Below are positions 25,996-52,726 of a stretch of 64,000 nt of DNA, piece by piece; position 1 is the first letter of the stretch; the number at the start of each line of letters is the position of its first letter. The notes under the pieces were generated by a model. That model did not search any database and was not told the DNA's origin. It saw only the letters and a list, made by a program, of their open reading frames with translations. The position numbers and the translations under genes were made by a program. This DNA is from Candidatus Hatepunaea meridiana. GTDB taxonomy: Bacteria; Electryoneota; AABM5-125-24; Hatepunaeales; Hatepunaeaceae. The stretch lies in contig JAVCDD010000015.1 of NCBI GenBank assembly GCA_030765125.1, forward strand, positions 2,939-66,938, given 5' to 3'.

Positions 25996-26059
25996 AATAT
26001 AGAACGCTTCGTTGTGCGGAATACGCCGGCGGAGCTTTTTTATTATAAGGGAAGAAACA

Positions 26060-29000
26060 ATGGTTCACCGATTTGCTTTAATTCTCTCGCTGATGGTTTT
26101 CTGCTTAACCATCACAACCGTATCAGCCCAGGAAATCATCGAAGTAGGAGACTTTGATACACCAGGGCTGGCTAAGGACGTTGTCGTCGCCGGTAACCAC
26201 GCATACATTGCGGATTACGGCAGCGGTCTGCGTATCATCAACATATCCGATCCGGAAAACCCTGATGAAGTCGGGGCTTTTGACACTCAGGGGAATGCTT
26301 GGGGCGTCGTCGTTTCCGGTGATTTCGCTTACATAGCTGACTACGCAAGCGGATTGCGTATAGTCAATATTTCCGATCCGGAAAATACCAATGAGGTTGG
26401 TAATTACGACACGCCAAGTCACGCCTTTAGCGTCGTCGTTATAAACAGCCTTGCTTATATCGCAGATGGCGAGGAGTCCGGATTACTCATAATAAACGTC
26501 GCCGATCCGGCAAATCCCGACATAGTTGCAAGCTTTGAGACTGAGGGAACCGCCTTCGACGTTTCCGTTGTCGGTAATCTTGCATACATCGCAGACGCTG
26601 GTTTTCTGCGCATTATTGATGTGTCTGATTTAGACAATATGGTCGAAGTCGGAACTATTGAAACTCGGGGTACCGCCAAAGGCGTAGCTGTCGCCGGTGA
26701 TTATGCTTACATCGCTGATGGCGAAAGCGGGTTGCGTATTATCAACGTATCCGATCCGGAGAACCCGGAAGAAGTGGGGGACTTCAATACACCCGACGAT
26801 GCCAGCGATGTTACCGTTGTCGGCAGCTATGCCTACGTAGCTGACGGTGAAAGCGGTCTTTACATAATTGATGTTTCTAATCCGGAGGAACCGGAAGAAG
26901 CAGGTTCTTTCGATACCCCGAACGAGGCGATAGGCGTCACCGGAAATGATGAATATATATACATAGCAGATAACACAAGCGGTCTGCTTATTCTAAACGT
27001 ATCCGAATTTCACATTCCTATTATTGCCGTTGCCCCTGAAGCCCTTGACTTTGAAGAGGTCGAGTTAAACCAGAGTGCGGAATTGACTTTGACCATCAAT
27101 AACGAGGGTGGTAATGATCTGACCATTTCGGATGTCTCATTAACTGGAGACCACTTCAGCGTTGACTTTGAAGATGAAGTTGTCGTTGAACGAGATGAAG
27201 ACTATGAATTAACGGTAACCTTTGCGCCTGAGGAAATCGGTGAACTACGGGATACTTTAATAATTACATCCAACGATCCTGATAACGGTGAAGTAACCAT
27301 ATTCCTGAGTGGTGTTGGCGTAGGACCGGTTATTTCCATTGATCCCGAGACGATGGTCTTCGGTCAGGTGTTAGTCGGTGAAGCTGGTGAGATGATTATT
27401 ACAATCAGCGACTCTGGAAACACTAATCTAATTGTGTCTGATATTTTAGTTGAAGGCGATTATTTCTACGTTGATTTCGAGCAGGAGTTAGTAATTGAAC
27501 CGAACGGCGCCGCTGAAGTGTCGGTCAGCTTTGCACCTGAAGAATTCCGCGATTGCCAGGGAACACTGACTATTACATCCAACGATCCTAATCGGGATGA
27601 GATAGTTATCAACTTAACTGGTTCTGGGGTTGCAGTAGCCATCCGCGAGGTCGGCGCTTTCAATACGCCGGGCGAGGCGCGGGGCATTGCGGTAGTTGGT
27701 GATATTGCTTACATTGCAGATGGTCAAACCGGTTTGATTATTTTCGATATTTCCAATCCTGCCGAACCGGATTCTCTTGGAGCCTGTGATACGCCTGGTG
27801 ATGCATACTACGTCATCGTCGTAGGTGAATATGCTTACATCGCCGATCAAACAGGCGGTTTAAGGGTAATTAATGTTTCCGATCCAACTGAACCCGAAGA
27901 AGTCGGATACTACGATACTGCCGGTGAAGCCAGAGGCGTTGCTGTGCTTGGGAACTATGCTTATATCGCAGACGGTGATCCAGGTCTCATAGCAATAAAC
28001 ATCTCTAATCCTGAAGATCCGGAGCAGGTAGGAGCATTCAATTCTCCCGGAACGGCAAGGGGTGTCACAATCTCAGGGGAATACGCTTATGTATCGGATG
28101 GAGGAAGCGGTCTTCGTATCGTAGACTTGTTTGATCCACGCAGCCCGGAAGAAATTGGCTCTTTCGATACACCGGGGTGGGCGTTGAGTTCCTTTATCGC
28201 TGGAGATTACGCTTATGTTGCCGACTGGCGCAATGGTATGCAGATCATTGATATATCCGATTTGGAAAATCCTGATTTGGTGAGCTCTTTTGATACACCG
28301 GGTGAAGCTTTGAACCTTGCAATTGTTGGTAATTACGTTTATATTGCTGATTTAGGTAGTGGTCTGCGAATGATCGACGTATCCAACCGTCGTCAACCTG
28401 AAGAAGCCGGATACTTTGATACACCCGGTAACGCAAGAGGCGTTGCCGTAATTGGTGACTATGCTTACGTAGCTGATGGACCGGGTGGATTGCGTATCCT
28501 CGATGTATCTAACATCGGCGAACCCTTACCGTTTATCTCAGTAGCGCCTTTAGAATTGGACTTCGGTGAGGTGATGCTGAATGAAGGTACGCAGTTGGCT
28601 ATAACAATCAGCAATGTTGGCGGTGCTGATCTGACCATTTCAGAAGTTGTCAGCAATTTTGGATGCTTTACAACCGATTTCGAGGATGAGATTGTCCTTG
28701 AACCAGATGAAAGTGAAAATGTAATGGTTACGTTTACACCGGATCATCACGGACTATTTGAAGGAACTATAACCATTACTTCAAATGATCCATTTACCGA
28801 AGAAGTAACTGTTACTCTGCGTGGAAACGGAATTATCGGCGTTATCCATCATATTGGTTTCTTTGATACGGAAGGGCATGCACTGGATGTGGTAATTGAA
28901 AATAATTATGCCTATGTGGCTGACCGGCGAGCTGGAATGAGCATAATCAGTATTGCCGATCCGTTTAATCCGAGTGAAGTTGGATACATCGATTCACCGG

Positions 29001-31234
29001 GTGACGCACGCGGTGTTGCCGTCCAGGGTGATTATGCTTATATAGCGGATTGGAATCAAGGATTGCGTATTATACTCGTCAGCCGTCCAACCCTTCCGCG
29101 CGAAGCTGGATTCTTTGTTACCGATGGAAATGCTCGAGGTGTCGCCGTAGCCGGGAACTATGCTTATGTTGCAATGCAGGAGAGCGGTCTTAGTATCATT
29201 GACATATCCGATCCCGCAGAACCCAGCGAAGTTGGCTCTTTCGATACACCGGGAGCTGCCTATGCCGTTGCCGTTGTTGAAGACTATGCTTATGTCGCTG
29301 ACGGAACAGGTGGACTTAGGGTGATAAATGTTTCAGATCCGCAAGAGCCTCGGGAAGTCGGCGCTTATGATACTGAGGGTCAATCTTATGGCATTACAGT
29401 TGATGGTGAGTTAGCATACGTTGCTGATGGTGACGGCGGTTTACGCATCATTAACATATCCGATCCGGAACATCCTGAAGAAGTGGGAGCATATCAAGAA
29501 TTGGAGCAATCCTGGGACGTTGCTGTTGAAGACGGCTTTGCATACATAGCGGACTATGAAAACGGTCTGCGCTTAATAGACGTTTCCGATCCCGAAAATC
29601 CCAACGAGGTCGGAGACTATGACACTCCTGGACTAGCTTACGGAGTCGCTGCCGCAAACGAGCATTACGCTTACGTAGCAGATTATGATAGCGGATTACG
29701 TATCCTTGACGTATCTGAAGTCATCGGTTGGGAAGCGCAAGATCCTGCTATTATCGTTTCACCGGATGAGTTAATCTTCGATCAGGTTGAGATCGGTCTG
29801 AATCGTAATCTCAACATTACTATTCGCAATGAAGGCAATGCTGATTTGATTGTATCCAATATTTATGTTACTGACAATGCTTTCAGTGTAGATTTCCCTG
29901 ATCAGCTCGCTATAGAGCCCGGCAACAGCGAAGAGATTGTGGTTACTTTTGCACCTGACAGATTCAGCGAATCCGAAGGAGACCTGATTATCGAATCCAA
30001 CGATCCGAATGGCGACGTATCAATCTCTTTGATCGGTTCAGGTGTTTACATTGTGATTAGCGAGATGGGGTATTTCGATACTGAAGGAAATGCTAAAGAC
30101 GTCGCAATCGTGGGTGATTACGCCTATGTAGCTGATGGTGAAGCGGGAATAAGCATAATAGATATTACCGATCTGCAAAACCCCAATGAAGTAGGAACAT
30201 TAGATACACCGGACGAAGCTTTTGCAATTGAGGTAGTTGGTGATTATGCTTATGTGGCAGACAAAGAGAGCGGGTTGCGCGTCATTAACATCTCAAATCC
30301 TGAGCAACCGGAAGAGGTTGGTTCTTATGACACACCGGGAATGGCAAGAGAAGTTGTTGTTGTCGGCAACTATGCTTACGTTGGCGATGGCGCTGATGGT
30401 TTCCGAGTGATTGACATATCAACTCCTGACGACCCACGTGGTACAGGCATCTATAATACACCTGACGAAGCCTGGGGAATCACCATTATCGGTGAATACG
30501 CATACGTAGCGACAAGGGAAAGAGGGTTGCGTATTCTAAACATCTTCGATCCGCAACGTCCAAATGAGGTTGGATTCTACGATACGCAGAGATACGCCCG
30601 CGACGTCAGCGTGTCCGGTGACTATGCTTATGTGGCAGACGGCACCGGCGGACTGGTCGTGTTAAATATTTCTGATCCGGAGCATCCTCGTAAAGAGGGC
30701 GAATTATTAACTATGGACGAAGCTCGCAGTATCACCATCCGTGGAAATTTTGCATTCGTCGCCGATAAGGAAGGTGGATTGCGGATTATTGATATCTCGC
30801 ATCCGGATGATCCGGAAGAGATCGGATTCTATAATACTTCAGACGAGTCTTTCGGAGTTACTGTTGTGGATGACAGATATGCCTACGTAGCGGACGGAGA
30901 GAACGGACTGCGAATACTTGACGTTTCAAACATCCACGGCGTAAACGATCAACAGGATAATCCTATTCCAACGGAATTCAATTTATCGGCAGCCTATCCG
31001 AATCCGTTCAACTCGACTATGAATATATCGTATGACCTGCCCGTCCTGACAAATATTTCATTGCAGATATTCGATGTCAACGGTAGAGTTACAGCAACGC
31101 TTTATTCAGGTGCAAGAGCGCCGGGGCGTTATCATTCAATTTGGAACGGACGCAATTCACCATCAGGCATTTACTTGATTAGGTTGAATTCATCCGATTT
31201 CAATGCTGTACGTAAAGTAGTACTAACGAAATGA
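26060..31234 (+). CDS. giant secreted LVIVD-repeat protein: four ~7-bladed LVIVD beta-propellers separated by choice-of-anchor-D Ig-like domains, with T9SS C-terminal sorting domain
   Basis: 1724 aa from the ATG at 26060 (track ORF begins at an upstream TTG). Signal peptide MVHRFALILSLMVFCLTITTVSAQ. Contains >25 copies of a ~40-aa unit G.YAY[IV]AD...GL[RV]I[IV][DN][IV]SDP.NP.EVG.[YF]DTPG.A.GV.V. Ig-like segments such as ELTLTINNEGGNDLTISDVSL...ITSNDPDNGEV appear four times. C-terminus AAYPNPFNSTMNISYDL...IRLNSSDFNAVRKVVLTK. Confidence 0.8.
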   Translation: MVHRFALILSLMVFCLTITTVSAQEIIEVGDFDTPGLAKDVVVAGNHAYIADYGSGLRIINISDPENPDEVGAFDTQGNAWGVVVSGDFAYIADYASGLRIVNISDPENTNEVGNYDTPSHAFSVVVINSLAYIADGEESGLLIINVADPANPDIVASFETEGTAFDVSVVGNLAYIADAGFLRIIDVSDLDNMVEVGTIETRGTAKGVAVAGDYAYIADGESGLRIINVSDPENPEEVGDFNTPDDASDVTVVGSYAYVADGESGLYIIDVSNPEEPEEAGSFDTPNEAIGVTGNDEYIYIADNTSGLLILNVSEFHIPIIAVAPEALDFEEVELNQSAELTLTINNEGGNDLTISDVSLTGDHFSVDFEDEVVVERDEDYELTVTFAPEEIGELRDTLIITSNDPDNGEVTIFLSGVGVGPVISIDPETMVFGQVLVGEAGEMIITISDSGNTNLIVSDILVEGDYFYVDFEQELVIEPNGAAEVSVSFAPEEFRDCQGTLTITSNDPNRDEIVINLTGSGVAVAIREVGAFNTPGEARGIAVVGDIAYIADGQTGLIIFDISNPAEPDSLGACDTPGDAYYVIVVGEYAYIADQTGGLRVINVSDPTEPEEVGYYDTAGEARGVAVLGNYAYIADGDPGLIAINISNPEDPEQVGAFNSPGTARGVTISGEYAYVSDGGSGLRIVDLFDPRSPEEIGSFDTPGWALSSFIAGDYAYVADWRNGMQIIDISDLENPDLVSSFDTPGEALNLAIVGNYVYIADLGSGLRMIDVSNRRQPEEAGYFDTPGNARGVAVIGDYAYVADGPGGLRILDVSNIGEPLPFISVAPLELDFGEVMLNEGTQLAITISNVGGADLTISEVVSNFGCFTTDFEDEIVLEPDESENVMVTFTPDHHGLFEGTITITSNDPFTEEVTVTLRGNGIIGVIHHIGFFDTEGHALDVVIENNYAYVADRRAGMSIISIADPFNPSEVGYIDSPGDARGVAVQGDYAYIADWNQGLRIILVSRPTLPREAGFFVTDGNARGVAVAGNYAYVAMQESGLSIIDISDPAEPSEVGSFDTPGAAYAVAVVEDYAYVADGTGGLRVINVSDPQEPREVGAYDTEGQSYGITVDGELAYVADGDGGLRIINISDPEHPEEVGAYQELEQSWDVAVEDGFAYIADYENGLRLIDVSDPENPNEVGDYDTPGLAYGVAAANEHYAYVADYDSGLRILDVSEVIGWEAQDPAIIVSPDELIFDQVEIGLNRNLNITIRNEGNADLIVSNIYVTDNAFSVDFPDQLAIEPGNSEEIVVTFAPDRFSESEGDLIIESNDPNGDVSISLIGSGVYIVISEMGYFDTEGNAKDVAIVGDYAYVADGEAGISIIDITDLQNPNEVGTLDTPDEAFAIEVVGDYAYVADKESGLRVINISNPEQPEEVGSYDTPGMAREVVVVGNYAYVGDGADGFRVIDISTPDDPRGTGIYNTPDEAWGITIIGEYAYVATRERGLRILNIFDPQRPNEVGFYDTQRYARDVSVSGDYAYVADGTGGLVVLNISDPEHPRKEGELLTMDEARSITIRGNFAFVADKEGGLRIIDISHPDDPEEIGFYNTSDESFGVTVVDDRYAYVADGENGLRILDVSNIHGVNDQQDNPIPTEFNLSAAYPNPFNSTMNISYDLPVLTNISLQIFDVNGRVTATLYSGARAPGRYHSIWNGRNSPSGIYLIRLNSSDFNAVRKVVLTK

Positions 31235-33129: not shown

Positions 33130-33230
33130 ACAAAATCAGTAGAAGCGACACTCTTGTCGCTTGAATGTTAGATTTACCACAACTTTGTAAGCGACGCAAG
33201 CGACAAGAGTGTCGCTTCTACTGATTTTGT
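33130..33230. mobile_element. MITE-C (33-bp TIRs ACAAAATCAGTAGAAGCGACACTCTTGTCGCTT)
   Basis: Perfect terminal inverted repeats flank a 35-bp centre; a second copy with the same TIR core lies at 40149..40240. Confidence 0.55.
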
Positions 33231-33277: not shown

Positions 33278-36200
33278 ATGAAAACAAACAAGAACTTATT
33301 CCTCATTTCAGCGCTTATAGCAATAATATGCTTTCAAGTAAACACTGCCGGCGCTGCAAACTGGTACGATCTATATGCACGCGGAACCAGACTGATGAAG
33401 AAGGAAAACTACGACAAGGCAGCCGAATGCTTTGCTAATGCGCTGAAACAGAACGATTCGGATAATCCGCGTGTTCGTACTTCAGGAATGCGCTTTATTA
33501 AATACTACCCACACAGAGAACTGGGTATATGCTATTACAATCTGGGTCGGTATTCAGAAGCTATGGAACAATTACGGGTTTCAATCCGGCAGTCTTCTAC
33601 CTCCAGTGCAAAGAGTTATCTGTCATTGGCTGAAAAGCAGATGGTTAATGTTCAAAATCAGATTAAGCAAGACAAGATAAAACAGGACGCTCTCGCCAGG
33701 GAAGCTCAAGAACGGGAAAAACAAGAAAGAATTAAAAAGAACGAACTCGCCAGGATAGAGTCGTCTGATCTGGGAGTCGCGGGTCAAGAATCCCACATAG
33801 AGATTACTCCATTGAAGAGGTTGAAGGAACAACCTGGATTGGTTGTCAGTATGGCATTCAGTCCCGATAGCAAATACTTAGCAAGCAGAAGCGGCAGCAA
33901 CATCCAACTATGGAATACTGAAACCGGTTCAAGCGCCGGGAAACTTACCGGGCATTCAGATGGTGTCTGGGATCTATGCTTCAGCGGGGATGGACAGCTT
34001 GCAAGCGCCAGCTTTGATGAAACTTCCAGGTTGTGGTCTATTGTAAACAAGCAATCAACCAGAACAATAACCGGACATTCGGCAAAGGTTCGGGCTGTTG
34101 CTCTCAGCCCTGACGGCAAGAGGCTCGCAAGCGGTGACGGGGATGGTATTATTAAACTATGGGATATGCAAAACGGACAGGAATTGAAATCGTTCAATCA
34201 TTATAACCGATGGATCAATACACTTGAGTTTAGTCCAAATGGATCCATACTTGCGAGCGGAGATGGCAATGGGACAATCAAACTGTGGAATATATATAAC
34301 GGTGAAGAGATTAAAACGCTTAAAGGACATTACGAAAGAGTAGATGTAGCATTCAGTCCGGACGGAAAGTATCTCGCCAGCGGTAGCAAAGACACAAAGA
34401 TTAAAATATGGGATGTTGAGAACGGCAATGTGATCAGAACATTGGAGGGACATACTTCCTCTGTCAATTCGATCTGCTTCAGTCCGGACGGCTTTTGGCT
34501 GGCAAGTGGAAGTGGGAAATGGGACGGTGGAGGCGAGAACAATTCGGTCAGGATCTGGTTAGTTGGCAGCGGTCAGGAAGTTAGAAAAATAAAAGCCTAC
34601 AATACTGTCTATTCAGTTGCATTCAGTCCGGATGGCTCTATGCTCGCCGCTGGAAGCGGGGATTATAGCACTGCCAAAGGTGAAGTCGAACTGTGGCGGG
34701 TTAAAATGCACAAACCGGAATTCGGTCTTCCTCCAAACCTGTTTGCCGAACTTAGCTTTGAAGATGACAATGGTAACGGTATACTCGATGCGATGGAATC
34801 AGCGCTGTTGGAAGTAACCCTCTATAACAAAGGGAAAGGTACTGCCCATCTTCTGCAGATTTGTATTGAGGACGATCAATATGATCCTGAACTGAAAATC
34901 GGAGGGAATGTAGTCTGGGAGTTACCCTCTAAAAATCAGACGAAAGTCACTATTCCTATTAGAACAGGCATGGACCTGAAATCTGCAAAACACCGGTTTA
35001 AAATCAGTGTTCTCGAGTACTTCGGATATGATATGGATCCAGCATACCTATCGCTCAACACGCAGGAATATTCGCCTCCAAAACTTGTCTATTCCGGTAT
35101 GGACATTGATGATTGGAGTGAGGGAACCGGCGGCAATGATGAGGATGGTCAGTTGCAGGCTGGTGAACTGGTTAAAATGAAGATTGTTGTGCAGAATATT
35201 GGTCAGGAGCCTGCGCTTAATACGAAATACTCCGTCAGAAGCGATGATAATAATATACGCCTCAAAGAAGGATACGGCACACTCGGCACAATAAAACCAG
35301 GGGAAGTCAAGGAATTTTGGATCACCATCAGTCCAAACAAACGTGTTACAACTGAGGATGATCTGCCCGTTTATCTGACGATGACTGAATCGATAGGCAA
35401 AGGCAAACTTTTAAATTTCCAGTTACCGATAAAGCTCAACCAGAAGCCTCCCCAAATGAATGTTGTCGAGGTCAAACCGGATTTGTCGCGACTCCAGCAA
35501 CAGATCGCAAAGTTTGAATACACATCTTCTAAATTCAAGACCCGTATTAAAAAGAAAGAAGATGTATGGGCTGTCAAGCGGTCTCGTTCGAGTCGACCGA
35601 ATTCTACAGCAGTCGTGATAGGCGTAGAAAATTATAAAAAACTTGCGCCGGCGCCATTTGCTGCAAGAGACGCTGATCTAATGGAAAAGTATTTTAGGGA
35701 GCTGCTTGGTGTTGATAATGTTGTTCTGTATAAGGATAACGACGTCTCAGGTATGGTGTTCGATGATATTTTCAACCCTGACAATGGTGAACTTCAGACG
35801 TCAATTATCCAAGGGGAAACAGAACTGTTTGTATATTACTCCGGTCACGGCATCCCGAATAAAACCGGTTCAGAGGTATATCTTGTTCCTTCTGATGTAA
35901 AAATTCACCGGCTTGAAGAACAGGGATACAGCTTGAACAAGTTCTATAAGAATCTGAGCGAGTTGGGCGCTAAAAATACGATGGTGATACTCGATGCCTG
36001 TTTCAGCGGTGGGTCGCGTTCAACCGGCAGTATAAAAGAAGAGAATCTCGTTGCACACAAGGCTGTTGGACTAAAGATCAAGGAGCCGTGGCGGACTTAT
36101 AAGAACTTTACGGTAATAAACTCGTCAACCGGTAGTGAGACCTCGTTGGGATTTGACCAGTCGGAGACAGGGCTGTTTACCTACTATCTGGCATTAGGAC

Positions 36201-36358
36201 TGAAAGGCAAAGCTGATGACAACAATGACCAAAAGGTAACGGTCGGTGAACTCAAACGATACGTAATCGCAAACGTAAAGGAAACGTCGAAGAAGATGTT
36301 AGGTTTACAGACGCCGCAATTCTACGGTGATGAGAGTCGGGTGTTGGTGGAGTATTAA
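33278..36358 (+). CDS. secreted multidomain protein: signal peptide - TPR - coiled coil - WD40 beta-propeller - Ig/CARDB-like domains - C-terminal caspase-like (peptidase C14) domain
   Basis: 1026 aa. About 8 WD40 repeats (TGHSDGVWDLCFSGDGQLASASFDETSRLWS; GHTSSVNSICFSPDG...). C-terminal caspase His/Cys dyad contexts YYSGHGIPN and MVILDACFSGGS. Confidence 0.7.
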   Translation: MKTNKNLFLISALIAIICFQVNTAGAANWYDLYARGTRLMKKENYDKAAECFANALKQNDSDNPRVRTSGMRFIKYYPHRELGICYYNLGRYSEAMEQLRVSIRQSSTSSAKSYLSLAEKQMVNVQNQIKQDKIKQDALAREAQEREKQERIKKNELARIESSDLGVAGQESHIEITPLKRLKEQPGLVVSMAFSPDSKYLASRSGSNIQLWNTETGSSAGKLTGHSDGVWDLCFSGDGQLASASFDETSRLWSIVNKQSTRTITGHSAKVRAVALSPDGKRLASGDGDGIIKLWDMQNGQELKSFNHYNRWINTLEFSPNGSILASGDGNGTIKLWNIYNGEEIKTLKGHYERVDVAFSPDGKYLASGSKDTKIKIWDVENGNVIRTLEGHTSSVNSICFSPDGFWLASGSGKWDGGGENNSVRIWLVGSGQEVRKIKAYNTVYSVAFSPDGSMLAAGSGDYSTAKGEVELWRVKMHKPEFGLPPNLFAELSFEDDNGNGILDAMESALLEVTLYNKGKGTAHLLQICIEDDQYDPELKIGGNVVWELPSKNQTKVTIPIRTGMDLKSAKHRFKISVLEYFGYDMDPAYLSLNTQEYSPPKLVYSGMDIDDWSEGTGGNDEDGQLQAGELVKMKIVVQNIGQEPALNTKYSVRSDDNNIRLKEGYGTLGTIKPGEVKEFWITISPNKRVTTEDDLPVYLTMTESIGKGKLLNFQLPIKLNQKPPQMNVVEVKPDLSRLQQQIAKFEYTSSKFKTRIKKKEDVWAVKRSRSSRPNSTAVVIGVENYKKLAPAPFAARDADLMEKYFRELLGVDNVVLYKDNDVSGMVFDDIFNPDNGELQTSIIQGETELFVYYSGHGIPNKTGSEVYLVPSDVKIHRLEEQGYSLNKFYKNLSELGAKNTMVILDACFSGGSRSTGSIKEENLVAHKAVGLKIKEPWRTYKNFTVINSSTGSETSLGFDQSETGLFTYYLALGLKGKADDNNDQKVTVGELKRYVIANVKETSKKMLGLQTPQFYGDESRVLVEY

Positions 36359-36573: not shown

Positions 36574-36706
36574 TATAATGGTAAAATATGGGGACAGCAG
36601 TGATACTTGTCCCCATATTTACAAAGATCACATTAGCCTCGACATCGTTAGTCCGGTCAACATCGGAGAAGATATATAGAATTATTTTCTCGGAATATCT
36701 CTTTAT

Positions 36707-36891
36707 CGGTTATGCCTTTAGCTCAGCAATGTATAAACCTAATAACACCGGAGTAGCGAAGCTTGCTGCGCGTCCACTTAACAATACCGGAAGTAGTAAA
36801 GCTTGCTGCGTTCTTGCACTGTGGCGCATGCGTGTCTGCTTGCGAGCGCGCAGCAAGCTGCGCTACTCCGGCTGAGCTAAAGGCATAACCG
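36707..36891. mobile_element. MITE-E (TIRs CGGTTATGCCTTTAGCTCAGC) flanked by a 9-bp direct repeat TCTCTTTAT (target-site duplication)
   Basis: TSD copies at 36698..36706 and 36894..36902. Internal sub-palindrome ccggagtagcgaagcttgctgcgcg...cgcgcagcaagctgcgctactccgg. A second copy begins at 63841. ORFs 36588..36875 and 36723..36977 inside it are spurious. Confidence 0.6.
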
Positions 36892-37247
36892 ATTCTCTTT
36901 ATTTCTTTCCAATCATTAAAAATCCAATCTAAAATCTCACACGCTACCCGTTTGATCTCTTTTAGCATGATGATCATCTTTTAGAAGGCGATAGAGGCGA
37001 TAACGAAGTTGCGTCCATTACCGGTGACAAGGGATTTAGCACACCTTATGCGTTGAGATACTTGATTTTCCATCGTGTGCTATCTATATTGTGATAAGTG
37101 GAAAAACACAAACCACTATACAGGCAGGAGCGCGACTATGCCACCATTATTGCAGGGATATGAAAATCCCAGGACAGTATCCTTCGGGCGCCTCCAAACT
37201 TTTCATGTGGCACGGTCAGGCAATGACCAGAAAAAGAGAGGAATAAC

Positions 37248-38540
37248 ATGGCTAAAATAGAAGGATTCAGAATTCAAAATTATCGTGTGTTGAAAGACGT
37301 GACACTCGGAAAACTTTGGAATATGCAACAAGCACAGCCACTAACGCCGTTGACAGCCGTTATTGGGAAAAACGGTGTCGGCAAGAGCTCTCTGTTTGAT
37401 GCATTCGGCTTCCTTGCTGATTGCTTGAAATTGGGTGTCGAAGAAGCTTGTGATACCAAAGGGCGGGGAGGGTTTGATCGTATTCGCTCTCAAGGGAGTG
37501 ATGATCCGATTGAGTTCCAGATATATTACAAGCAAGATGGAAATGCCCGACCGATCACCTATGAACTTGCCATTGACACAGATAAAACTGGTCGTCCTTA
37601 CGTAAAACAGGAACGTTTTCGTCAAAGACGTAAAGGACAAAATCGTGGCTGGCCCTTCTCGTTTCTTATGTTAATCGAAGGCAAAGGAGCCGTGTGGAAA
37701 GGCGAGGAATTGGGACTACAGAGTGACGAAGGTAAGAGTCCTCTCAACTTTATACAGTTGATGGAGATAATTAATGCAGAATCACCAAAAGAGGAGAGCC
37801 ACGAAACGGAGGTTATTGAACTGCAAGACAAGCGTAAGCTTGGTATTGCAACCCTTGGTGCGCTGAAGCAACATCCTCGAATATCGGCTTTTAGACAGTT
37901 CATCGAAGGATGGTATTTGAGTTACTTCACTCCAGACGCAGCCCGCAGCCTGCCCTTGGCGGGTCCACAAAGGCACTTGAGTATCCACGGTGACAATCTT
38001 GGCAATGTTGTCCAGTTCATGCAGCGTGAACATCCTAAACGTTTTGCGAGTATCCTCAATCGCATTGCTGAAAAAATCCCTGGAATTGACAAGATTGATA
38101 CTAATCAAAGTCAGGATAAACGATTACTTCTCCGTTTTAACGACAAAGGTTTTAATGACCCTTTTTACGCTCAACAAATGTCTGATGGCACACTAAAAGT
38201 CTTTGCCTATCTGCTTTTATTGGAAGATCCAACACCGCCACCTTTCATCTGTATTGAGGAGCCTGAAAACGGTCTTTATCACAAACTCCTTGAAACTCTT
38301 GCAACTGAATTCCGTACACATGCAACCGGAAGGAAAAACGCACCACAACTCTTTATCACAACTCATCAACCATATTTTGTCGATGCACTCGCACCGGAAG
38401 AGACATGGTTACTTGAAAAAGGTTCGGATGGTTTTTCGACTATCCGCAGAGCAAGTGATGATGAAACCGTCAACGCAATGGTGGAGGAGGGATTACCTCT
38501 TGGGAGTCTCTGGTACAGCGATTACCTTGATGCAAGGTGA
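37248..38540 (+). CDS. ABC-type AAA ATPase (AAA_21/AAA_15-like; OLD/AbiLi/RloA-like ATPase component)
   Basis: 430 aa with Walker A VIGKNGVGKSSLFDA, ABC signature-like QMSDGTLKVFAYLLLL, Walker B PFICIEEPENGLY and H-loop FITTHQPYF. The stop overlaps the start of the next gene (ATGcaaggTGA). Confidence 0.7.
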   Translation: MAKIEGFRIQNYRVLKDVTLGKLWNMQQAQPLTPLTAVIGKNGVGKSSLFDAFGFLADCLKLGVEEACDTKGRGGFDRIRSQGSDDPIEFQIYYKQDGNARPITYELAIDTDKTGRPYVKQERFRQRRKGQNRGWPFSFLMLIEGKGAVWKGEELGLQSDEGKSPLNFIQLMEIINAESPKEESHETEVIELQDKRKLGIATLGALKQHPRISAFRQFIEGWYLSYFTPDAARSLPLAGPQRHLSIHGDNLGNVVQFMQREHPKRFASILNRIAEKIPGIDKIDTNQSQDKRLLLRFNDKGFNDPFYAQQMSDGTLKVFAYLLLLEDPTPPPFICIEEPENGLYHKLLETLATEFRTHATGRKNAPQLFITTHQPYFVDALAPEETWLLEKGSDGFSTIRRASDDETVNAMVEEGLPLGSLWYSDYLDAR

Positions 38541-39198
38541 ACCAGTGCACTTTGAAATACTTGTTGAAGATAAGTCAGGGAAAATCGCATTGGAATCTTT
38601 TTTGGGAAAAATACTTAGCCCAAACGGGCAAGATCACACCTATAAAGTAATTTCCTACAAAGGAATTGGACGCATTCCAAGAAATCTAAGAGGAACAACA
38701 GATCCGCAGAAGCGGATTCTTCTGGATCAATTGCCCAGGTTACTCAGAGGATATGGGAAAAGTTTCCGAGAATATCATCATGCAGTTGTGGTGGTCGTTG
38801 ACCTTGATAATAAGAATTGTCTAAACTTCAAACAAGAACTCCTCAATGTGTTATATGCCTGCAATCCAAAGCCAAAAACACTGTTCAGAATTGCGATAGA
38901 GGAAGGCGAAGCATGGTTATTGGGAGATCGTAACGCCGTAAAAACTGCCTACCCACATGCAAAAGTGCGGGTATTAGACGCTTATGTACAAGACAGCATT
39001 TGTGGTACGTGGGAAAAGCTTGCAGATGCAATCTATCTGGGTGGATCACAAAAACTTAAACAAATGGGATACCCCCTTACGGGACAGGCTAAGTGCGAAT
39101 GGGCGAAAACAATAGCTCCCCACTTAGATGTGGAGAATAATCAGTCGAAAAGTTTCCAAGTTTTTCGTGATGGAATCAGAAATCTGGCGGGATCGTGA
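38530..39198 (+). CDS. small TOPRIM-like protein (DUF4276/RloB-like), partner of the upstream ATPase
   Basis: 222 aa from the ATG at 38530; the track ORF 38203.. carries a spurious N-terminal extension inside the ATPase gene. Conserved Glu in strand 1 (HFEILVEDKSG) and DxD motif (AVVVVVDLDNKN), consistent with a TOPRIM nuclease fold. Confidence 0.55.
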   Translation: MQGEPVHFEILVEDKSGKIALESFLGKILSPNGQDHTYKVISYKGIGRIPRNLRGTTDPQKRILLDQLPRLLRGYGKSFREYHHAVVVVVDLDNKNCLNFKQELLNVLYACNPKPKTLFRIAIEEGEAWLLGDRNAVKTAYPHAKVRVLDAYVQDSICGTWEKLADAIYLGGSQKLKQMGYPLTGQAKCEWAKTIAPHLDVENNQSKSFQVFRDGIRNLAGS

Positions 39199-39234
39199 CC
39201 TGATGAATGATTATGTTGAAAAGTCAATTATTAT

Positions 39235-40148: not shown

Positions 40149-40240
40149 GAAAAATAGTAGAAGCGACACTCTTGTCGCTTTGGCAATGTCTCTGAAACTC
40201 GAAAGCCCAAGCGACAAGAGTGTCGCTTCTACTATTTTTC
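40149..40240. mobile_element. MITE-C second copy
   Basis: TIR gaaaaatagtagaagcgacactcttgtcgctt ... aagcgacaagagtgtcgcttctactatttttc, followed by the (CAACATYA)n tract at 40278..40314. Confidence 0.55.
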
Positions 40241-40318
40241 AAGGGGTGGCACAGGCAATAAATAGCCTGCGCCACCCAATCACAACATCTCAACATCACA
40301 ACATTACAACATCAAGAA

Positions 40319-42939: not shown

Positions 42940-43224
42940 TGGACTCCTCCATTTATAAAAATAGATTTTATAATTTCGAGATGTTGCGATGTTGTGATTT
43001 ATTTTTTTCTTTCACGTTTTGTATTTGATTAAGTAAGGTAGGTAATCAGGTTCCTATTAGTATAGTGATTAATTGACGGGAATTCAAGTATATTTTAAAA
43101 TCAAGCGTCTAACAGAGAAATATATTAACTATTATGCATCAGTTATTGCTAATATTACGTAATCACTATATATTACATAAATGGAGAAAACACTGACACT
43201 TACTAAATCGGAGTACAAACCCGC

Positions 43225-46499: not shown

Positions 46500-46890
46500 C
46501 AGGTAGCGTAGGGCGGGATCTTATCCCGCCGAACTGCTTTTCTTGATAATGAAGATGTCCGGCAATACTTACTATTAATGATCCTGTTGAAATACTTCCC
46601 ATTTTGTCATTCCCGCGAAGGCGGGAATCCAGTTTAAAGAGTTTAAATACTTGAAAACTCTGGATTCCCGCCTTCGCGGGAATGACAAAGTGGGAAGCAA
46701 ATTCTGTAATAATTGACTTTTTCAACAGAATCATTAATCCGACCGTTTAATAGTTGACGTTGCGTTGCTGTCAGGTTACGCTTCGCTTGAAACCTGACGG
46801 GAACGTGTATATTATTAAGCGGTCTGGTTAATAATTTGAGTGATGTTAGACTTACGGCGGGTTAAGAACCCGCCCTACGTTTCAGGATTA
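46500..46890. repeat. composite nested palindromic region inside the efflux operon, containing a MITE-A copy at 46596..46697
   Basis: Outer inverted repeats cgtagggcgggatcttatcccgcc / ggcgggttaagaacccgccctacg; middle inverted repeats ttaatgatcctgttgaaa / tttttcaacagaatcattaa; inner MITE-A TIRs cttcccattttgtcattcccgcgaaggcgggaatccag. ORF 46423..46734 is spurious. Confidence 0.55.
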
Positions 46891-47036: not shown

Positions 47037-49448
47037 ATGAACCTATCCGATGTAAAACTATCCTGGCGAACCCACAAGAAGAGTCCGCTCTTCGCGGTAA
47101 TCAACATACTTGGCTTGGCTGTGGCTATGGCTGCGGTTATCCTGATTGCTATTTACGTTCGTTATGAACTCAGCTATGATGCTCATTGGAAGAATGCCGA
47201 CAGAATTTACCGTGTGAATGGCGTCTGGACTACCGAAACCGGTGAAGAGATCACATCGCCAACCAGCGTGGGGGCTCTGAAAACCGCATTTGACCGAGAT
47301 ATTCCCGGCATTGAAGCAAGCGCGAGAATCGTTGACTTTGGCTGGCTTGAATATATATCCACAGAAAAAGCTTCCGCGCAAGTACTGATTCCAATGGCAG
47401 ATTCAACACTTTTAGATGTTTTTGATATTAAACTTCTTAAAGGTGATCCCAACACCGCATTGAGCGTCCACAATTCGGTTATCATAAACGAATCGTCAGC
47501 AAAGAAATTTTTCGGTGATGAGAACCCGATAGGAAAAAATTTAGAATTCAAAGCAGGTGCTTTCTATACTGTGACAGGCGTTTTCGAGGATATCTCTCAG
47601 CCGACACATCTAAAAAAGTATGCAATGTTTAACGGAATGCCGAGAATCTGGATCAATGACAATTGGGGATTTGAACTCCCTAATACGTATGTTATGCTCC
47701 AGGAAGGCGTAGATCCACATTCATTGCAACCGGCTTTGGATTCACTCGTTAAACCGCATGTTAAAAATCTTTCTTCTCAAGAAGGAAAGGTGTTCCGACT
47801 CGATCTCCAACCCGTTCGCGATATTCATCTCTATTCTACTCTATCAAATAGATTCTCATGCTGCGAAGAAAACACCACTCCAGCGATAGAAAACATCAGG
47901 TTGTTTTCCGGTGTCGGATTGCTCATTTTGATAATAGCTTGTTTAAATTTCATTAACCTTTCCTCTGCACGCAGTGCAGCCCGAGGAAAACAGGTTGGGA
48001 TTGCTAAGGTGGTTGGAGCCACGCGAGGCAGGCTATTCCGGAGCTTTATGCTCGAATCGATAGTTATGACAACCGGTTCAATGGTGATCGCCTTGTTGAT
48101 CTCAGGATTGCTATTGCCACATTTCATAAACATTTCCGGCATAAACCCGGATGTTGTTCAACTATTAGATTTAAGGTCCCTCGGGTTATTAGGATTATTT
48201 ACTGTTACTGTCGGCTTATTGGCGGGCTGTTATCCGGCTGCTTTTTTATCAGGTTTTCGTCCGGCTCAGGTTCTTAAGGGAACTCTTAGCCAGGGCTTAA
48301 AAGGATCTAAGCTGAGAGCTATATTAGTGATTTTCCAGTTTTCTATCTCGATAGCGCTTATAACCGGAATATTGATTGTCCATAATCAGATTAGTTACAT
48401 ATTCAATAAACCGCTCGGTTATAACATAGAAAACATCGTTATATTGGATCTGATGAGATTCCAGGGTGATTGGAGCGAGGAAGCTTTCATCAACGAATTA
48501 AGTTCATTGCCGGGAGTTGTTGATTTGACGACATCGCTCATGGTCCCGTTACTTGCAGGAGTCAATTGTTCAGGACCGGGTGAATGTTTTATACCTGGAT
48601 CCAACGATGAAATTTTAAATCCGCATTTTATGAAAGTAGGAACGAATTTTCCACAAATGTTTCAAATGAACTTGTTATCCGGCGCGTGGCTTGATAAAGA
48701 GATAAATTATGATAAAAATAACATCTCAATAATCATTAACCAGACAATGGCAAAGCGGTTGGGGTTCGATGATGCGGTTGACAAACAAATAAAGTCTCCT
48801 ATAAATGATGGAACTCGAACGTATACAATCATCGGTATAGTTGAGGATTTCCATTTAAAATCTCTACATTCGCGAATTGAACCAACCTTTTTAGTACCTA
48901 ATTGCAAAACCATTTGGAAGATACTGCTCAAGCTCGATCCAAACGACATACCCGGAACATTGACTGCTGTAGAGAGAATTTGGCTGGAATTAGGTCCACC
49001 GGTGGTTTTTAATTATCAATTTCTCGAAGATGTTTTTCGGCAGATTCATTCGGCTGACAAACGGTTTCAGGAAATTTTCATCAACTTAACTCTACTGGCG
49101 ATCTTCATTGCCTGTCTGGGTCTGTTCGCTTTGGCTGCTTACGCCGCAGAACGACGAACGAAGGAGATTGGCATCCGCAAAGCCCTGGGGGCATCAGTAT
49201 CCGGGATAGTAATGCTACTGTCGAAGGAATTCCTTATTCTAATAATGATCTCAAACGTGATAGCAACGCCGATAGCTTACTATTTTATGCAGCGTTGGTT
49301 GGAGAACTTTGCCTATAGGATTAGTATTGGAACAGGGGTTTTCCTGTTCGCAGCCATCCTAAGCGTACTGATAGCTTTACTCACCGTCAGTGCTCATGCT
49401 GTTCGAGCGGCAATGATGAAGCCAGTGGATTCGTTGAGACATGAATAA
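47037..49448 (+). CDS. ABC transporter permease, FtsX/MacB-type with two FtsX domains
   Basis: 803 aa; N-terminal TM + periplasmic MacB_PCD-like domains + FtsX 4-TM bundle, repeated twice. Confidence 0.8.
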   Translation: MNLSDVKLSWRTHKKSPLFAVINILGLAVAMAAVILIAIYVRYELSYDAHWKNADRIYRVNGVWTTETGEEITSPTSVGALKTAFDRDIPGIEASARIVDFGWLEYISTEKASAQVLIPMADSTLLDVFDIKLLKGDPNTALSVHNSVIINESSAKKFFGDENPIGKNLEFKAGAFYTVTGVFEDISQPTHLKKYAMFNGMPRIWINDNWGFELPNTYVMLQEGVDPHSLQPALDSLVKPHVKNLSSQEGKVFRLDLQPVRDIHLYSTLSNRFSCCEENTTPAIENIRLFSGVGLLILIIACLNFINLSSARSAARGKQVGIAKVVGATRGRLFRSFMLESIVMTTGSMVIALLISGLLLPHFINISGINPDVVQLLDLRSLGLLGLFTVTVGLLAGCYPAAFLSGFRPAQVLKGTLSQGLKGSKLRAILVIFQFSISIALITGILIVHNQISYIFNKPLGYNIENIVILDLMRFQGDWSEEAFINELSSLPGVVDLTTSLMVPLLAGVNCSGPGECFIPGSNDEILNPHFMKVGTNFPQMFQMNLLSGAWLDKEINYDKNNISIIINQTMAKRLGFDDAVDKQIKSPINDGTRTYTIIGIVEDFHLKSLHSRIEPTFLVPNCKTIWKILLKLDPNDIPGTLTAVERIWLELGPPVVFNYQFLEDVFRQIHSADKRFQEIFINLTLLAIFIACLGLFALAAYAAERRTKEIGIRKALGASVSGIVMLLSKEFLILIMISNVIATPIAYYFMQRWLENFAYRISIGTGVFLFAAILSVLIALLTVSAHAVRAAMMKPVDSLRHE

Positions 49449-51858
49449 AATGTATTTGACGGATCTCAAACTATCCTGGCGGACTCACAAGAAGAATCCG
49501 CTCTTCACGGCAGTCAACATACTTGGCTTGGCTGTGGCTATGGCTGCGGTTATCCTAATCACCATCTACGTTCGTTATGAACTCAGTTATGATGCACATT
49601 GGAAAAATGCAGACAGGATTTACCGTGTGAATGGCACCTGGATTACTGAAAGCGGTGGAGAGATCACATCGCCAACCAGCGTAGGGGCTCTGCAAACCGC
49701 ATTTGAACAAGACATTCCTGGAATCGAAGCAAGCGCGAGAATCATGGACTGGGGCTGGCTTACATCTATATCCTCAGAAAAAGCTTCAGCGCCGGTGTTG
49801 ATCCCAATGGCGGACTCAACTCTTTTCGATGTCTTTGATCTAAAGCTACTGAAAGGTGATCCCAACACTGCATTAAGCGACCCCTTCTCGGTTGTAATAA
49901 ACGAATCATCGGCAAAGAAGTTCTTCGGCGATGAAAATCCGATTGGAAAATATCTCGACACCGATGCAGATACTTTCTACACAGTAACAGGCGTATTCGA
50001 GGATATTTCCAAACCGACACACCTCAAAAAGTATAAGATGTTTATTGGGTTGCAAAGAAAATGGATCGATGATTTCTGGGGATTAGACGCCCAAAATACT
50101 TACATAGTGCTCCAGGAAGGCGTCGATCCATACGGTTTGCAACCCGCTTTGGATTCACTCGTTAAACCGCATGTTAAAGATATTTCTTCTAAAAAAGGAA
50201 AGGTGTTCCGGCTCGATCTTCAACCCCTTCGCGATATTCATCTCTATTCTACTCTATCAAATAGATTTTCATGCAGCGAAGAAAACACCACTCCAGCGAT
50301 AAAAAACATCAGGTTGTTTTCCGGTGTTGGTTTGCTGATTCTTATAATAGCCTGTCTAAATTTCATTAACCTTTCCTCTGCACGCAGTACAGCTCGAGGG
50401 AAACAGGTTGGGATTGCCAAGGTGGTTGGAGCCACGAGAGGCAGATTATTCCGGAGCTTTATGCTCGAATCGATAGTTATGACAACTATTTCAATGGTGA
50501 TTGCCTTGTTGATCTCAAGATTACTATTGCCGCATTTCATAAACATCTCCGGTATAAACCCGGATGTTGTTCAACTATTAGATTTTAGGTCCCTCGGATT
50601 ATTAGGGTTATTTACTGTTATTGTCGGCTTATTGGCGGGTTGTTATCCTGCCGCTTTTTTGTCGGGTTTTCGTCCGGCTCAGGTTCTTAAAGGCACTCTC
50701 AGCCTGGGTATGAGAGGATCGAAGTTGAGAGCAATATTGGTGATTTTCCAGTTTTCTATTTCGATAGCGCTTATAACCGGAATATTGATTGTCCATAATC
50801 AGATTACGTACATTTTCAACAAACCGTTGGGCTATGACATAGAAAATATTGTTCTAATGGATCTGATGAAATACGATGGTGATTGGAGCGAGGAAGCTTT
50901 CATTAACGAATTGAGTTCGTTGCCGGGAGTTGTCGATTTAACGACAGCGATCCATGTTCCGTTACTTCCGGGAGTCGGTTGCGCAGGATTAGGTAGATGT
51001 TTCATACCTGGCACGAATGATGAAAAGCTTGATCTGCATATGTTGCGGGTGGGAACGAGCTTTCCACAAATGTTTCAAATGAACTTGCTCGCCGGCAGAT
51101 GGTTTGATAAAGAGACAGATTTAAAAAAAGACGTCTCACTAATTATTAACCAGACGATGGCAAAGCAATTGGGGCTCGATGATCCGGTTGGCAAACAAAT
51201 AAAATCTCCCTATATGGATAAAATTCGAATGAGAACAATCATCGGTTTAGTCGAGGACTTTCATTTAAAATCATTACATTCACAAATCGAACCGACTTTT
51301 TTAAGTCTCGATGACGATGCCAACTGGAATATACTGCTCAAGCTCGATCCAAACGACATACCCGGAACATTGACTGCTGTTGAGAGAATTTGGCAGGAAT
51401 TGGCTCCACCGGTAGCTTTTAACTATCAGTTTCTCGAAGATGTTTATCAGAAGATTCACTTGCCTGACAAACGGTTTCAGGAAATTTTCATCAGCCTAAC
51501 TCTACTGGCGATCTTCATTGCCTGTCTGGGTCTGTTCGCTCTGGCAGCTTATGCTGCAGAACGTCGAACCAAGGAGATCGGCATCCGCAAAGCCCTGGGA
51601 GCATCAGTATCCGGGATAGTAATGCTGCTGTCAAAGGAATTCCTTATTCTAATAATGATCTCAAACGTGATAGCAGCGCCGGTAGCCTACTATTTTATGC
51701 AGCGTTGGTTGGAAAACTTTGCCTACAGAATAACCATCGAACCGGGAGTTTTCCTGTTGGCAGCGGTTTTAAGTTTGCTTATTGCTTTAGCAACTGTCAG
51801 TACTCAGGCGGTCCGAGCTGCAATGATGAAGCCAGTGGATTCGCTGCGATACGAGTAG
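49441..51858 (+). CDS. ABC transporter permease, FtsX/MacB-type (tandem paralog)
   Basis: 805 aa; collinear with, and about three-quarters identical to, the preceding permease; 8-nt overlap. Confidence 0.8.
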   Translation: MNKMYLTDLKLSWRTHKKNPLFTAVNILGLAVAMAAVILITIYVRYELSYDAHWKNADRIYRVNGTWITESGGEITSPTSVGALQTAFEQDIPGIEASARIMDWGWLTSISSEKASAPVLIPMADSTLFDVFDLKLLKGDPNTALSDPFSVVINESSAKKFFGDENPIGKYLDTDADTFYTVTGVFEDISKPTHLKKYKMFIGLQRKWIDDFWGLDAQNTYIVLQEGVDPYGLQPALDSLVKPHVKDISSKKGKVFRLDLQPLRDIHLYSTLSNRFSCSEENTTPAIKNIRLFSGVGLLILIIACLNFINLSSARSTARGKQVGIAKVVGATRGRLFRSFMLESIVMTTISMVIALLISRLLLPHFINISGINPDVVQLLDFRSLGLLGLFTVIVGLLAGCYPAAFLSGFRPAQVLKGTLSLGMRGSKLRAILVIFQFSISIALITGILIVHNQITYIFNKPLGYDIENIVLMDLMKYDGDWSEEAFINELSSLPGVVDLTTAIHVPLLPGVGCAGLGRCFIPGTNDEKLDLHMLRVGTSFPQMFQMNLLAGRWFDKETDLKKDVSLIINQTMAKQLGLDDPVGKQIKSPYMDKIRMRTIIGLVEDFHLKSLHSQIEPTFLSLDDDANWNILLKLDPNDIPGTLTAVERIWQELAPPVAFNYQFLEDVYQKIHLPDKRFQEIFISLTLLAIFIACLGLFALAAYAAERRTKEIGIRKALGASVSGIVMLLSKEFLILIMISNVIAAPVAYYFMQRWLENFAYRITIEPGVFLLAAVLSLLIALATVSTQAVRAAMMKPVDSLRYE

Positions 51859-52666: not shown

Positions 52667-52726
52667 ATCATACAAACTTGGTTTGACGGTAGTATTTTAC
52701 AGCCTCAGAGTGATTTAGATAGACCC

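Follow-up and report, generated by a model that had tools for sequence, protein, structure and literature searches.

The question raised by this locus, found on the forward strand of a 64,000-nucleotide stretch of DNA (the window), is whether its two adjoining genes belong to a known kind of phage defence. To judge from the sequence, two genes form an intact cassette here: an ABC-type ATPase (gene A) and, after it, a predicted nuclease that is small and Toprim-like (DUF4276; gene B). On sequence comparison, the catalytic motifs are intact in both. The best explanation, and one that we consider probable, is an intact member of HEC-01, a candidate anti-phage pair made up of the ABC-type ATPase and the predicted nuclease of the DUF4276 Toprim family. 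Gene A (HEC-01A; 37248..38540, + strand) encodes 430 aa and was delimited by its ORF and by Pfam and PADLOC matches. A Walker A, a signature, a Walker B and an H-loop had been proposed for this ORF in the original prediction, and all of them were located on the + strand: Walker A GKNGVGKS (aa 40-47; nt 37365-37388), the signature, which reads MSDGT (aa 311-315; nt 38178-38192), Walker B ICIEE followed by PENGL (aa 334-343; ICIEE at nt 38247-38261) and the H-loop TTHQP (aa 371-375; nt 38358-38372). All ATPase motifs of the protein are kept across 75 homologues, and a D-loop is also present. The two Pfam families named beforehand for comparison were both matched above threshold, AAA_21 with 162 bits (cut-off 27, E 3.9e-47) and AAA_15 with 54.5 bits (cut-off 32.1, E 2e-14). 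Motif conservation suggests a competent ATPase, with an ABC fold predicted. A protein 100% identical to A is annotated in a Candidatus Hatepunaea meridiana MAG. For A, the AlphaFold2 model reached a pLDDT of 50, probably because the input alignment contained only sequences 83-89% identical. PDB sequence searches with A, the A profile and the B profile returned no solved relatives. In the PHROGs search, A matched only ATPase families of unknown function and B had no match.

The start of the second gene had to be revised. It was originally predicted that the ORF at 37248..38540 is coupled to an in-frame ORF ending at 39198, both of which were found, through the stop/start overlap ATGcaaggTGA. 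This string exists at the A/B junction (38530..38544, + strand), where an alternative ATG at 38530 precedes the TGA stop of A (38538-38540) and a 4-nt spacer leads to a GTG at 38545, but its ATG is probably not the start of B. In all 80 related loci, a start codon (74 ATG and 6 GTG) stands 4 nt past the stop of A and directly before the conserved HFEILVED, and the equivalent position in the window is GTG 38545. A further set of 147 homologues begins there too, as do the 50%-identity cluster representatives. ATG 38530, which falls in the Asp-Ala codons of A, is absent from several relatives (e.g. L015, L020-L022). Since a start codon stands at the first position in all 80 loci and ATG 38530 is missing in several relatives, B most likely begins at GTG 38545 and extends over 38545..39198 (217 aa), so that the two genes would be closely linked, 4 nt apart, without overlap. 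The stop of A lies inside a Shine-Dalgarno-like motif, AAGGTGA, and the pattern AGGTGA/AGGTAA, 4 nt and ATG/GTG is conserved in the alignment of the 80 loci; this motif presumably couples the translation of B to that of A.

Gene B (HEC-01B; + strand, GTG start with comparative support) carries the two segments quoted at the outset as TOPRIM hallmarks, ILVEDKSG and VVVVVDLDNKN. Among divergent relatives, E8 (nt 38566-38568), D86xD88 (nt 38800-38808), E122 (nt 38908-38910) and K183 (nt 39091-39093), all on the + strand, are invariant. The structure prediction suggested for this protein was carried out, and the AlphaFold2 model (pLDDT 82) has a predicted fold whose closest match is the Toprim region of OLD. 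It shows a Glu ending strand 1, a DxD after strand 3 and an alpha/beta fold with a four-stranded sheet. The assignment to DUF4276 made in the original prediction is probably right: the Pfam alignment with PF14103 is full length (1-190/192; 28.6 bits, E 2e-06, just under the gathering threshold of 30.2 bits), and almost every close homologue has PF14103 as a precomputed annotation. The TOPRIM assignment of HEC-01B and DUF4276 has also been made independently in the literature (bioRxiv 10.1101/2024.01.29.577857; PMC12065111).

The family assignment is carried by the PADLOC models. Gene A matches HEC-01A (PDLC04182) with 657.1 bits over residues 1-429 of 430 (model 1-402/406), and gene B, adjoining A on the same strand, matches HEC-01B (PDLC04205) with 312.6 bits over model positions 1-211/213. 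These matches, like those to Pfam, are far above chance. The architecture of an ABC-fold ATPase (AAA_21/AAA_15) followed by a small TOPRIM-like protein had been correctly anticipated; the suggestion that the pair may be an uncharacterised variant was not borne out, as both proteins match catalogued components over their full length. The cassette is already catalogued in kind: it is an ordinary representative of a widespread and horizontally spread family and no new type of system. HEC-01 (Hma-embedded candidate 01) was described by Payne et al. and first found embedded in Hma loci (bioRxiv 10.1101/2024.01.29.577857). The present cassette resembles it in gene order, in protein sizes and in joining an ABC ATPase to a TOPRIM-like partner, and its relatives are likewise embedded within larger defence operons. 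It differs in that it is solitary among non-defence genes of an Electryoneota genome, and the embedding of its relatives is in BREX (PglXI type), not in Hma.

A family search gave about 970 clusters at 50% identity, and HEC-01 is reported to rank in the top twelve system types by abundance in microbial genomes from cold seeps (PMC12881386). Gene A lies directly upstream of B in 80 of the 80 loci compared, which come from bacterial phyla and archaea, and the amino-acid identity of relatives in different phyla is 75-89%. Purifying selection on the pair is strong (dN/dS 0.05-0.28 overall), with values against relatives of 0.05-0.09 for A and 0.11-0.28 for B. The relatives are scattered in MAGs and isolates of many phyla and are not found throughout any lineage. 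This patchy distribution, in place of the universal housekeeping conservation that would have spoken against the original prediction, indicates horizontal transfer of the pair across phyla and domains. One copy is cargo of the conjugative plasmid pGLE121P3, and in a Rahnella lambdoid prophage the pair is located between the antiterminator and lysis genes. In several loci it is embedded in BREX, in the order BrxC-PglXI-[A-B]-...-BrxH/PglZ-BrxA. The immediate neighbours in the 80 loci include six PglXI, and among the others are methyltransferases or helicases. The 415 neighbouring ORFs of these loci form 317 clusters, most immediate neighbours are unrelated genes, and only about 10-15% are defence-like.

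A possible trace of this association is also seen in the window. About 88 nt 5' of A (37160..37247, + strand) resemble the 3' end of the BREX gene pglXI, as found by nhmmer, alignment and tblastn. A profile built from the final 100 nt of pglXI in 5 BREX-embedded loci matched the window by nhmmer with E 1.1e-09, and the match ends directly before the ATG of A. With tblastn, the PglXI C-terminus (residues 934-956) matched 37163-37231 with 48% identity (E 0.08). The leader includes a ribosome-binding-like site, AGAGAGGA, and a 51-codon orphan ORF (37091-37246) has its stop there. This remnant also occurs where no PglXI adjoins the pair, in loci L058, L017, L014, L018 and L019. It may be a fossil of the gene found ahead of A in relatives embedded in BREX, or else a conserved leader; as a pglXI remnant, it suggests that the cassette descends from a BREX-embedded copy.

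The original prediction had called the pair OLD-, AbiL- or PARIS-like. The first part of this stands in a broad sense, since an ABC-fold ATPase with a Toprim-like partner places the pair, by its sequence features, in the OLD-like group of ABC ATPase + TOPRIM systems, which takes in PARIS, AbiL and Mad3-Mad4 (PMC11464382). By the defining second component it is none of the three named, as B matched no DUF4435, RloB or Toprim_Old model in Pfam and PADLOC even at E<=1. In PARIS, a hexamer of AriA holds the TOPRIM protein AriB and frees it on sensing anti-restriction proteins. PARIS too has two genes, an AAA_15/21-type ABC ATPase and then a small TOPRIM-superfamily effector, but we find this identification barely credible. 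The AriA match of A has the same length and coordinates as its AAA_21 match (304 positions, residues 35-379), and is accordingly a match to the generic domain, against 657 bits for HEC-01A. The effector here is DUF4276 and not DUF4435, has no AriB match at E<=1, and at 217 aa is about 90 residues shorter than AriB (about 305 aa). That the locus is an AbiL abortive-infection pair (AbiLi/AbiLii, RloA/RloB) or a restriction-linked Rlo module would agree with the AbiLi matches of A in PADLOC (84.8 and 39 bits), with the methyltransferases adjoining some relatives and with the report that RloB and DUF4276 are both of the Toprim superfamily (PMC12065111). It is nevertheless highly improbable, because scores with the HEC-01 models are higher by a factor of four to eight and B matches neither RloB (PF13707) nor AbiLii at E<=1. 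A detached Mad3-Mad4 pair of methylation-associated defence (MADS/Hma), non-functional without its other subunits, is also very unlikely. Gene A matches the mad3 models (PADLOC 75 bits, NCBIfam MAD3 85.8 bits), Mad4 is reported as a DUF4276 homologue (PMC12065111) and HEC-01 was discovered inside Hma loci (bioRxiv 10.1101/2024.01.29.577857). The NCBIfam score, however, is far under the cut-off of 420 bits, and an ordinary ATPase of an ABC transporter, also encoded in this window, reaches 100 bits on PADLOC mad3, so the match of A is generic. Furthermore, B matches no mad4 model in PADLOC, no mad genes occur among the neighbours of the cassette in the window, and the pair stands alone under strong purifying selection in many contexts. 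Both Mad3-Mad4 and AbiL share with the cassette the pairing of an ABC ATPase with a Toprim-superfamily protein, tied to methylation or restriction loci (PMC12065111, PMC11464382). In OLD (P2 Old, class 2 BpOLD) and Gabija GajA, ATPase and Toprim form a single fused polypeptide, in OLD with the ABC ATPase N-terminal and the Toprim C-terminal. In the cassette a stop codon, kept in all 80 relatives, separates two genes; B lacks a Pfam Toprim_Old match and the cassette a GajB-like helicase partner. The Menshen NsnC variants with a DUF4276 C-terminal domain are alike in using this Toprim-assigned effector family within an ABC ATPase-containing system (PMC12065111), but Menshen has three genes (NsnA/B/C), A scores only 37 bits against NsnB, and the cassette has no NsnA or NsnC scaffold.

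A different kind of reading gives the pair no role in immunity: it would be a selfish module for addiction or stabilisation, or would serve in the repair or processing of nucleic acids, and would spread with mobile DNA. Its very high conservation, both in the dN/dS of A and in identity across phyla, is atypical of fast-evolving immune sensors, copies are carried by a conjugative plasmid and by a prophage, and its neighbours are mostly non-defence genes. The published tests of HEC-01 conflict: the representative of Payne et al. gave no protection against any phage tested in E. coli MG1655 (bioRxiv 10.1101/2024.01.29.577857), whereas an HEC-01 from a cold seep made E. coli B resistant to at least one of T4, T5 and T7, a result reported without mutants or mechanism (PMC12881386). 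The former favours a non-immune role and the latter opposes it. With the recurrent embedding in BREX operons, the patchy distribution and an architecture common to several proven defence systems (PMC11464382), we regard a non-immune role as unlikely. If the cassette acts in defence as an HEC-01 member, its mechanism can be proposed by analogy with PARIS, OLD and Gabija. PARIS, in which AriA senses the trigger and frees AriB, leading to tRNA cleavage (PMC11464382), is probably the working model, with an ATPase that senses and a nuclease that is released. A and B would be carried on a single transcript, with B initiated from the ribosome-binding site inside the 3' end of A. The two proteins would form a complex, in which the ATPase would sense a cue of infection and control B; once licensed, B may cut nucleic acid (DNA, or tRNA as in PARIS) through its putative E/DxD/E metal site and the conserved Lys. 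Such cleavage would halt phage replication directly or through abortion of the infected cell.

A more specific proposal, that this HEC-01 subclade arose within BREX as a second-line, PARIS-like anti-anti-restriction sensor, is unlikely. It comes from the position of several relatives right after pglXI and from the pglXI 3' remnant kept by free-standing copies, and the unusually strong purifying selection on the ATPase would fit a sensor that recognises a conserved counter-defence protein of phages or guards a BREX component. If it were true, the 2-kb cassette would be an autonomous backup immune module, spread over bacterial phyla and archaea, that cuts conserved host or phage nucleic acid. 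The link to BREX suggests where the trigger may be sought. The activity of HEC-01 is disputed, and the comparative data may be useful to anyone testing the family; they include the corrected start of B, a 2-kb minimal cassette, the invariant E/DxD/E/K residues for mutation, and signs that the pair is under very strong purifying selection and has been transferred between domains.

In the window itself, the cassette is surrounded by surface, transport and metabolic genes, and PADLOC and the neighbour survey found nothing defence-related in this neighbourhood, a point against the defence reading. A WD40-caspase gene does adjoin it, as was pointed out in the original prediction, but this adjacency is not conserved in any of the 80 loci. 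The N-terminus of this neighbour reads, by eye, as a signal peptide, and PADLOC gives it only weak, generic matches; on these grounds it was rejected as a defence partner. Scanning the window with Rfam and for tRNAs gave no hits, so it shows no tRNA integration site and no known RNA element; mobility genes or terminal repeats were looked for at the cassette ends and none was seen. An accessory island bounded by MITE copies had also been proposed. Copies of a 189-nt palindromic repeat do exist, at 36705-36893 and 63840-64000, but neither is at the cassette limits and the neighbours are not defence genes. Homology with relatives stops at about 37160 and about 39216, which sets the conserved cassette at about 2 kb. 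The repeats were rejected as its borders, as both limits lie away from them and from the terminator-like double hairpins at 33132-33228 and 40149-40240.

The gene pair at 37248-39198 on the forward strand of the window is a real feature that was rightly recognised in outline, and it belongs to the already catalogued candidate family HEC-01 (Hma-embedded candidate 01). In PADLOC, the ABC-type ATPase (A) matched HEC-01A (PDLC04182) with 657 bits and the small predicted nuclease (B) matched HEC-01B (PDLC04205) with 313 bits, both end to end, so the pair adds another member to this family and is not the uncharacterised variant that the original prediction had allowed for. The expected outline of an ABC ATPase with a small TOPRIM-like/DUF4276 protein was borne out in Pfam, where A matched AAA_21 (162 bits) and also AAA_15, and B matched DUF4276 over its full length with 28.6 bits, just below the threshold of 30.2 bits. 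An assignment to PARIS, AbiL or OLD was not borne out, since B had no match to DUF4435, RloB, Toprim_Old, AriB, AbiLii or mad4 in Pfam and PADLOC even at E<=1. Other PADLOC matches of A were far weaker or generic (AbiLi 85 bits, mad3 75 bits). The AriA model matched A with length and coordinates identical to those of the Pfam AAA_21 match, NCBIfam MAD3 reached 86 bits on A against a cut-off of 420, and with the mad3 model A was outscored by an ordinary transporter-type ABC ATPase encoded at another site of the window. Membership of PARIS, AbiL, MADS and OLD failed on the defining features of each. HEC-01 was defined by Payne et al (bioRxiv 10.1101/2024.01.29.577857) as an ABC ATPase and TOPRIM pair embedded in Hma systems; these authors described a conserved metal site in common with BpOLD and found no protection against the phages that they tested. 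DUF4276 and RloB are reported to be members of the Toprim superfamily, and Mad4 to be a DUF4276 homologue (PMC12065111). A published grouping of ABC ATPase and TOPRIM systems puts AbiL and Mad3-4 together with PARIS, OLD and Gabija (PMC11464382).

A is an ATG-initiated ORF of 430 aa (37248-38540, forward strand), whose Walker A (GKNGVGKS, residues 40-47), signature (MSDGT, 311-315), Walker B (ICIEE then PENGL, 334-343) and H-loop (TTHQP, 371-375) were all kept in an alignment of 75 homologues. A second, in-frame ORF ending at 39198 holds ILVEDKSG and VVVVVDLDNKN, and the motifs quoted earlier for both proteins were all found. B had been thought to start at ATG 38530, overlapping the stop of A in ATGcaaggTGA (TGA 38538-40), but comparison of 80 related loci from other genomes moves the start to GTG 38545. 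At this position, 4 nt 3' of the A stop and directly 5' of the conserved HFEILVED, a start codon was present in all 80 loci (74 ATG, 6 GTG), and homologous B proteins start at the equivalent position. The upstream ATG lies within the Asp-Ala codons of A and is absent from several relatives. Therefore, B most likely spans 38545-39198 on the forward strand (217 aa). In addition, an AGGTGA/AGGTAA motif across the A stop is conserved at the junctions of the related loci, and the two genes are tightly linked, most likely without overlap, and probably coupled via a ribosome-binding site inside the end of A.

In the AlphaFold2 model of B (from 147 homologues; pLDDT 82, pTM 0.80), four strands and the helices between them alternate, and the C-terminal part after them is helical. 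Foldseek returned no significant match for this model, sequence search of the PDB detected no solved structures of A or B relatives, and the model of A (pLDDT 50) was unusable. Among 54 family members, 33-72% identical to the window protein, E8, D86, D88, E122, W124 and K183 (counted from GTG 38545) are invariant; in the model the Glu follows strand 1, the DxD strand 3 and an acidic residue strand 4, and the Lys lies in the helical part. From what is known of Toprim and OLD active sites, a metal-dependent Toprim nuclease would be expected to have just such a Glu/DxD/acidic/Lys set. A and B would be translated together from one mRNA and may form a complex, in which the ATPase would serve as infection sensor or regulator. 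B would then act as a Toprim nuclease that is released or activated to stop the infection, along the lines of PARIS (PMC11464382), which may serve as a model for its action.

The A protein is annotated with identical sequence in a MAG of Candidatus Hatepunaea meridiana (Electryoneota, FCB group), an affiliation that agrees with the T9SS-sorted surface proteins of the window. Homologues of B number more than 6000 in a 90%-identity cluster database and form 969 clusters at 50% identity, and 495 stretches were confirmed among GTDB species genomes. The 80 related loci are the best 80 of these 495; they come from bacteria (Thermodesulfobacteriota, Nitrospirota, Dehalococcoidia, Vicinamibacterales, Nostocales, Gammaproteobacteria and Bacteroidales) and archaea (Methanosarcinales/ANME and one Promethearchaeota MAG). 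Each of these loci has an A homologue (55-89% identical) immediately 5' of B. Nucleotide homology to the window is confined to the stretch from ~37190-37250 to ~39186-39216, so the shared unit, as delimited by alignment, is a 2-kb two-gene cassette. Against ten relatives, dN/dS was 0.05-0.09 for A and 0.11-0.28 for B, and both are under strong purifying selection. In our judgement, vertical descent between phyla would have left a dS greater than the 0.4-1.4 seen here, and this indicates spread of the cassette by horizontal transfer. The closest genomic relative lies on a 17-kb contig of the Promethearchaeota MAG (JAIWHJ010000003.1; 86% nucleotide identity, with 88.8% and 81% amino acid identity for A and B), and its presence in this Asgard-binned contig reflects transfer across domains or else an error in binning.

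Whereas the HEC-01 of Payne et al is embedded in Hma, relatives of the window pair are embedded in BREX (related loci L002, L003, L016, L078, L080 and others), in the order BrxC-PglXI-[A-B]-(AlbA_2 protein)-BrxH/PglZ-BrxA. The 88 nt 5' of A in the window (37160-37247) are homologous to the pglXI 3' end as it abuts A in such loci (nhmmer E 1.1e-09); the homology is also seen in the alignment, the protein-level match is weak, and the remnant is kept in several loci without adjacent PglXI. From these matches we take the leader to be a fossil left from an ancestor embedded in BREX; alternatively, it may be a conserved leader. An orphan ORF of 51 codons (37091-37246), which ends 1 nt before the A ATG and resembles the BREX PglXI C-terminus in its last ~23 codons (KIP...KLxMWxxQAxTR), is probably a gene fossil travelling with the cassette. 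A further gene adjoins the pair in BREX-embedded L002, L016, L018, L019 and L078 (e.g. L016:9198-10958), which hints at the pglXI-brxH interval as a favoured site for embedded accessory genes; the annotated member of its cluster (L018:2965-4491) is a Schlafen/AlbA_2 protein with a Fic-like C-terminal domain. The pair is also cargo between T4SS genes and the relaxase gene of conjugative plasmid pGLE121P3, and a lambdoid prophage carried by Rahnella plasmid PRA1 has the pair between antiterminator and lysis genes, which is the classical moron position. Elsewhere it is rare, with 5 records in the plasmid collection and 1 in the phage collection.

The comparison establishes family membership and intact motifs as well as the obligate pairing of A with B, selection on both genes, mobility and embedding in BREX. 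A non-immune, selfish or repair role is the serious rival to the defence reading. It is favoured by one negative phage screen, by unusually high conservation and by neighbours that are mostly non-defence. The 80 loci have 415 neighbouring ORFs, grouped in 317 clusters, with defence-like immediate neighbours in the minority (6 PglXI, 3 BrxH and a few methyltransferases). In the window, a PADLOC check found no credible defence genes among the neighbours, which comprise a giant LVIVD-repeat T9SS protein, a TPR-WD40-caspase protein, an EamA transporter, an esterase, a FadL-type porin, a glycosyltransferase and an HlyD/ABC export set. A 2026 study of cold seeps counted HEC-01 with the most abundant system types and, on the side of defence, reported that one representative protected E. 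coli B from one or more of the phages T4, T5 and T7 (PMC12881386). A more novel reading, in which the pair arose inside BREX as a PARIS-like backup that senses anti-restriction proteins, seems to us improbable.

Repeats do exist around the pair, but they do not mark the limits of the cassette, so its description as an island bounded by MITE copies is inaccurate. A 189-nt palindromic MITE-like element, bounded by perfect terminal inverted repeats of 23 nt (TCGGTTATGCCTTTAGCTCAGC...), lies at 36705-36893, within the 890 nt of non-coding DNA 5' of the cassette, and had no Rfam match; a second copy (63840-64000, 92% identical) continues past the window end. Paired inverted terminator-like hairpins (AAGCGACAAGAGTGTCGCTT plus T-run) occur as two intergenic copies (33132-33228, 40149-40240) and resemble terminators that work in both directions, or REP-like repeats, more than the ends of mobile elements. 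In the 36 nt that separate B from EamA (39199-39234) no terminator-like site was predicted, so read-through is possible; this spacer has a 91%-identical inverted copy at 46707-46739, and the two may be a common regulatory or repeat motif. A short ACAACATCACAACATTACAACATC-type repeat recurs at several intergenic sites (40278-40315; 16708-16757/16862-16911; 1110-1136; 42964-42999), at one of them as a 50-nt inverted pair. A separate intergenic family with the hairpin GGATTCCCGC(C/T)TTCGCGGGAATGACAAA is found at 12699-12745, 23235-23281, 46643-46689, 23044-23088 and 46575-46619, with paired units at about 23.0-23.3 kb and 46.6-46.7 kb.

The exported-looking WD40-caspase protein (33278-36358, 1026 aa) has a Pfam beta-propeller match for WD40 repeats and a C-terminal Peptidase_C14; by reading, its N-terminus is signal-peptide-like and a TPR-like region is present. 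Its neighbourhood with the pair is unconserved elsewhere. The window carries T9SS-sorted surface proteins, such as the LVIVD protein (26012-31234, 1740 aa), with 25 LVIVD repeats, several Ig-like (HYDIN/ASH/DUF1573) domains, a T9SS C-terminal sorting domain and an internal 126-nt periodicity in the DNA. Furthermore, there are two tandem paralogue arrays, one (17821-25158) for some four proteins with beta-helix and T9SS tail, each roughly 550-610 aa long, and one (47037-53105) with ORFs of 803 and 805 aa and a further, partial copy 3' of an ABC ATPase; their copies are 81-96% identical in DNA, and the annotation comes from the 612-aa member only.
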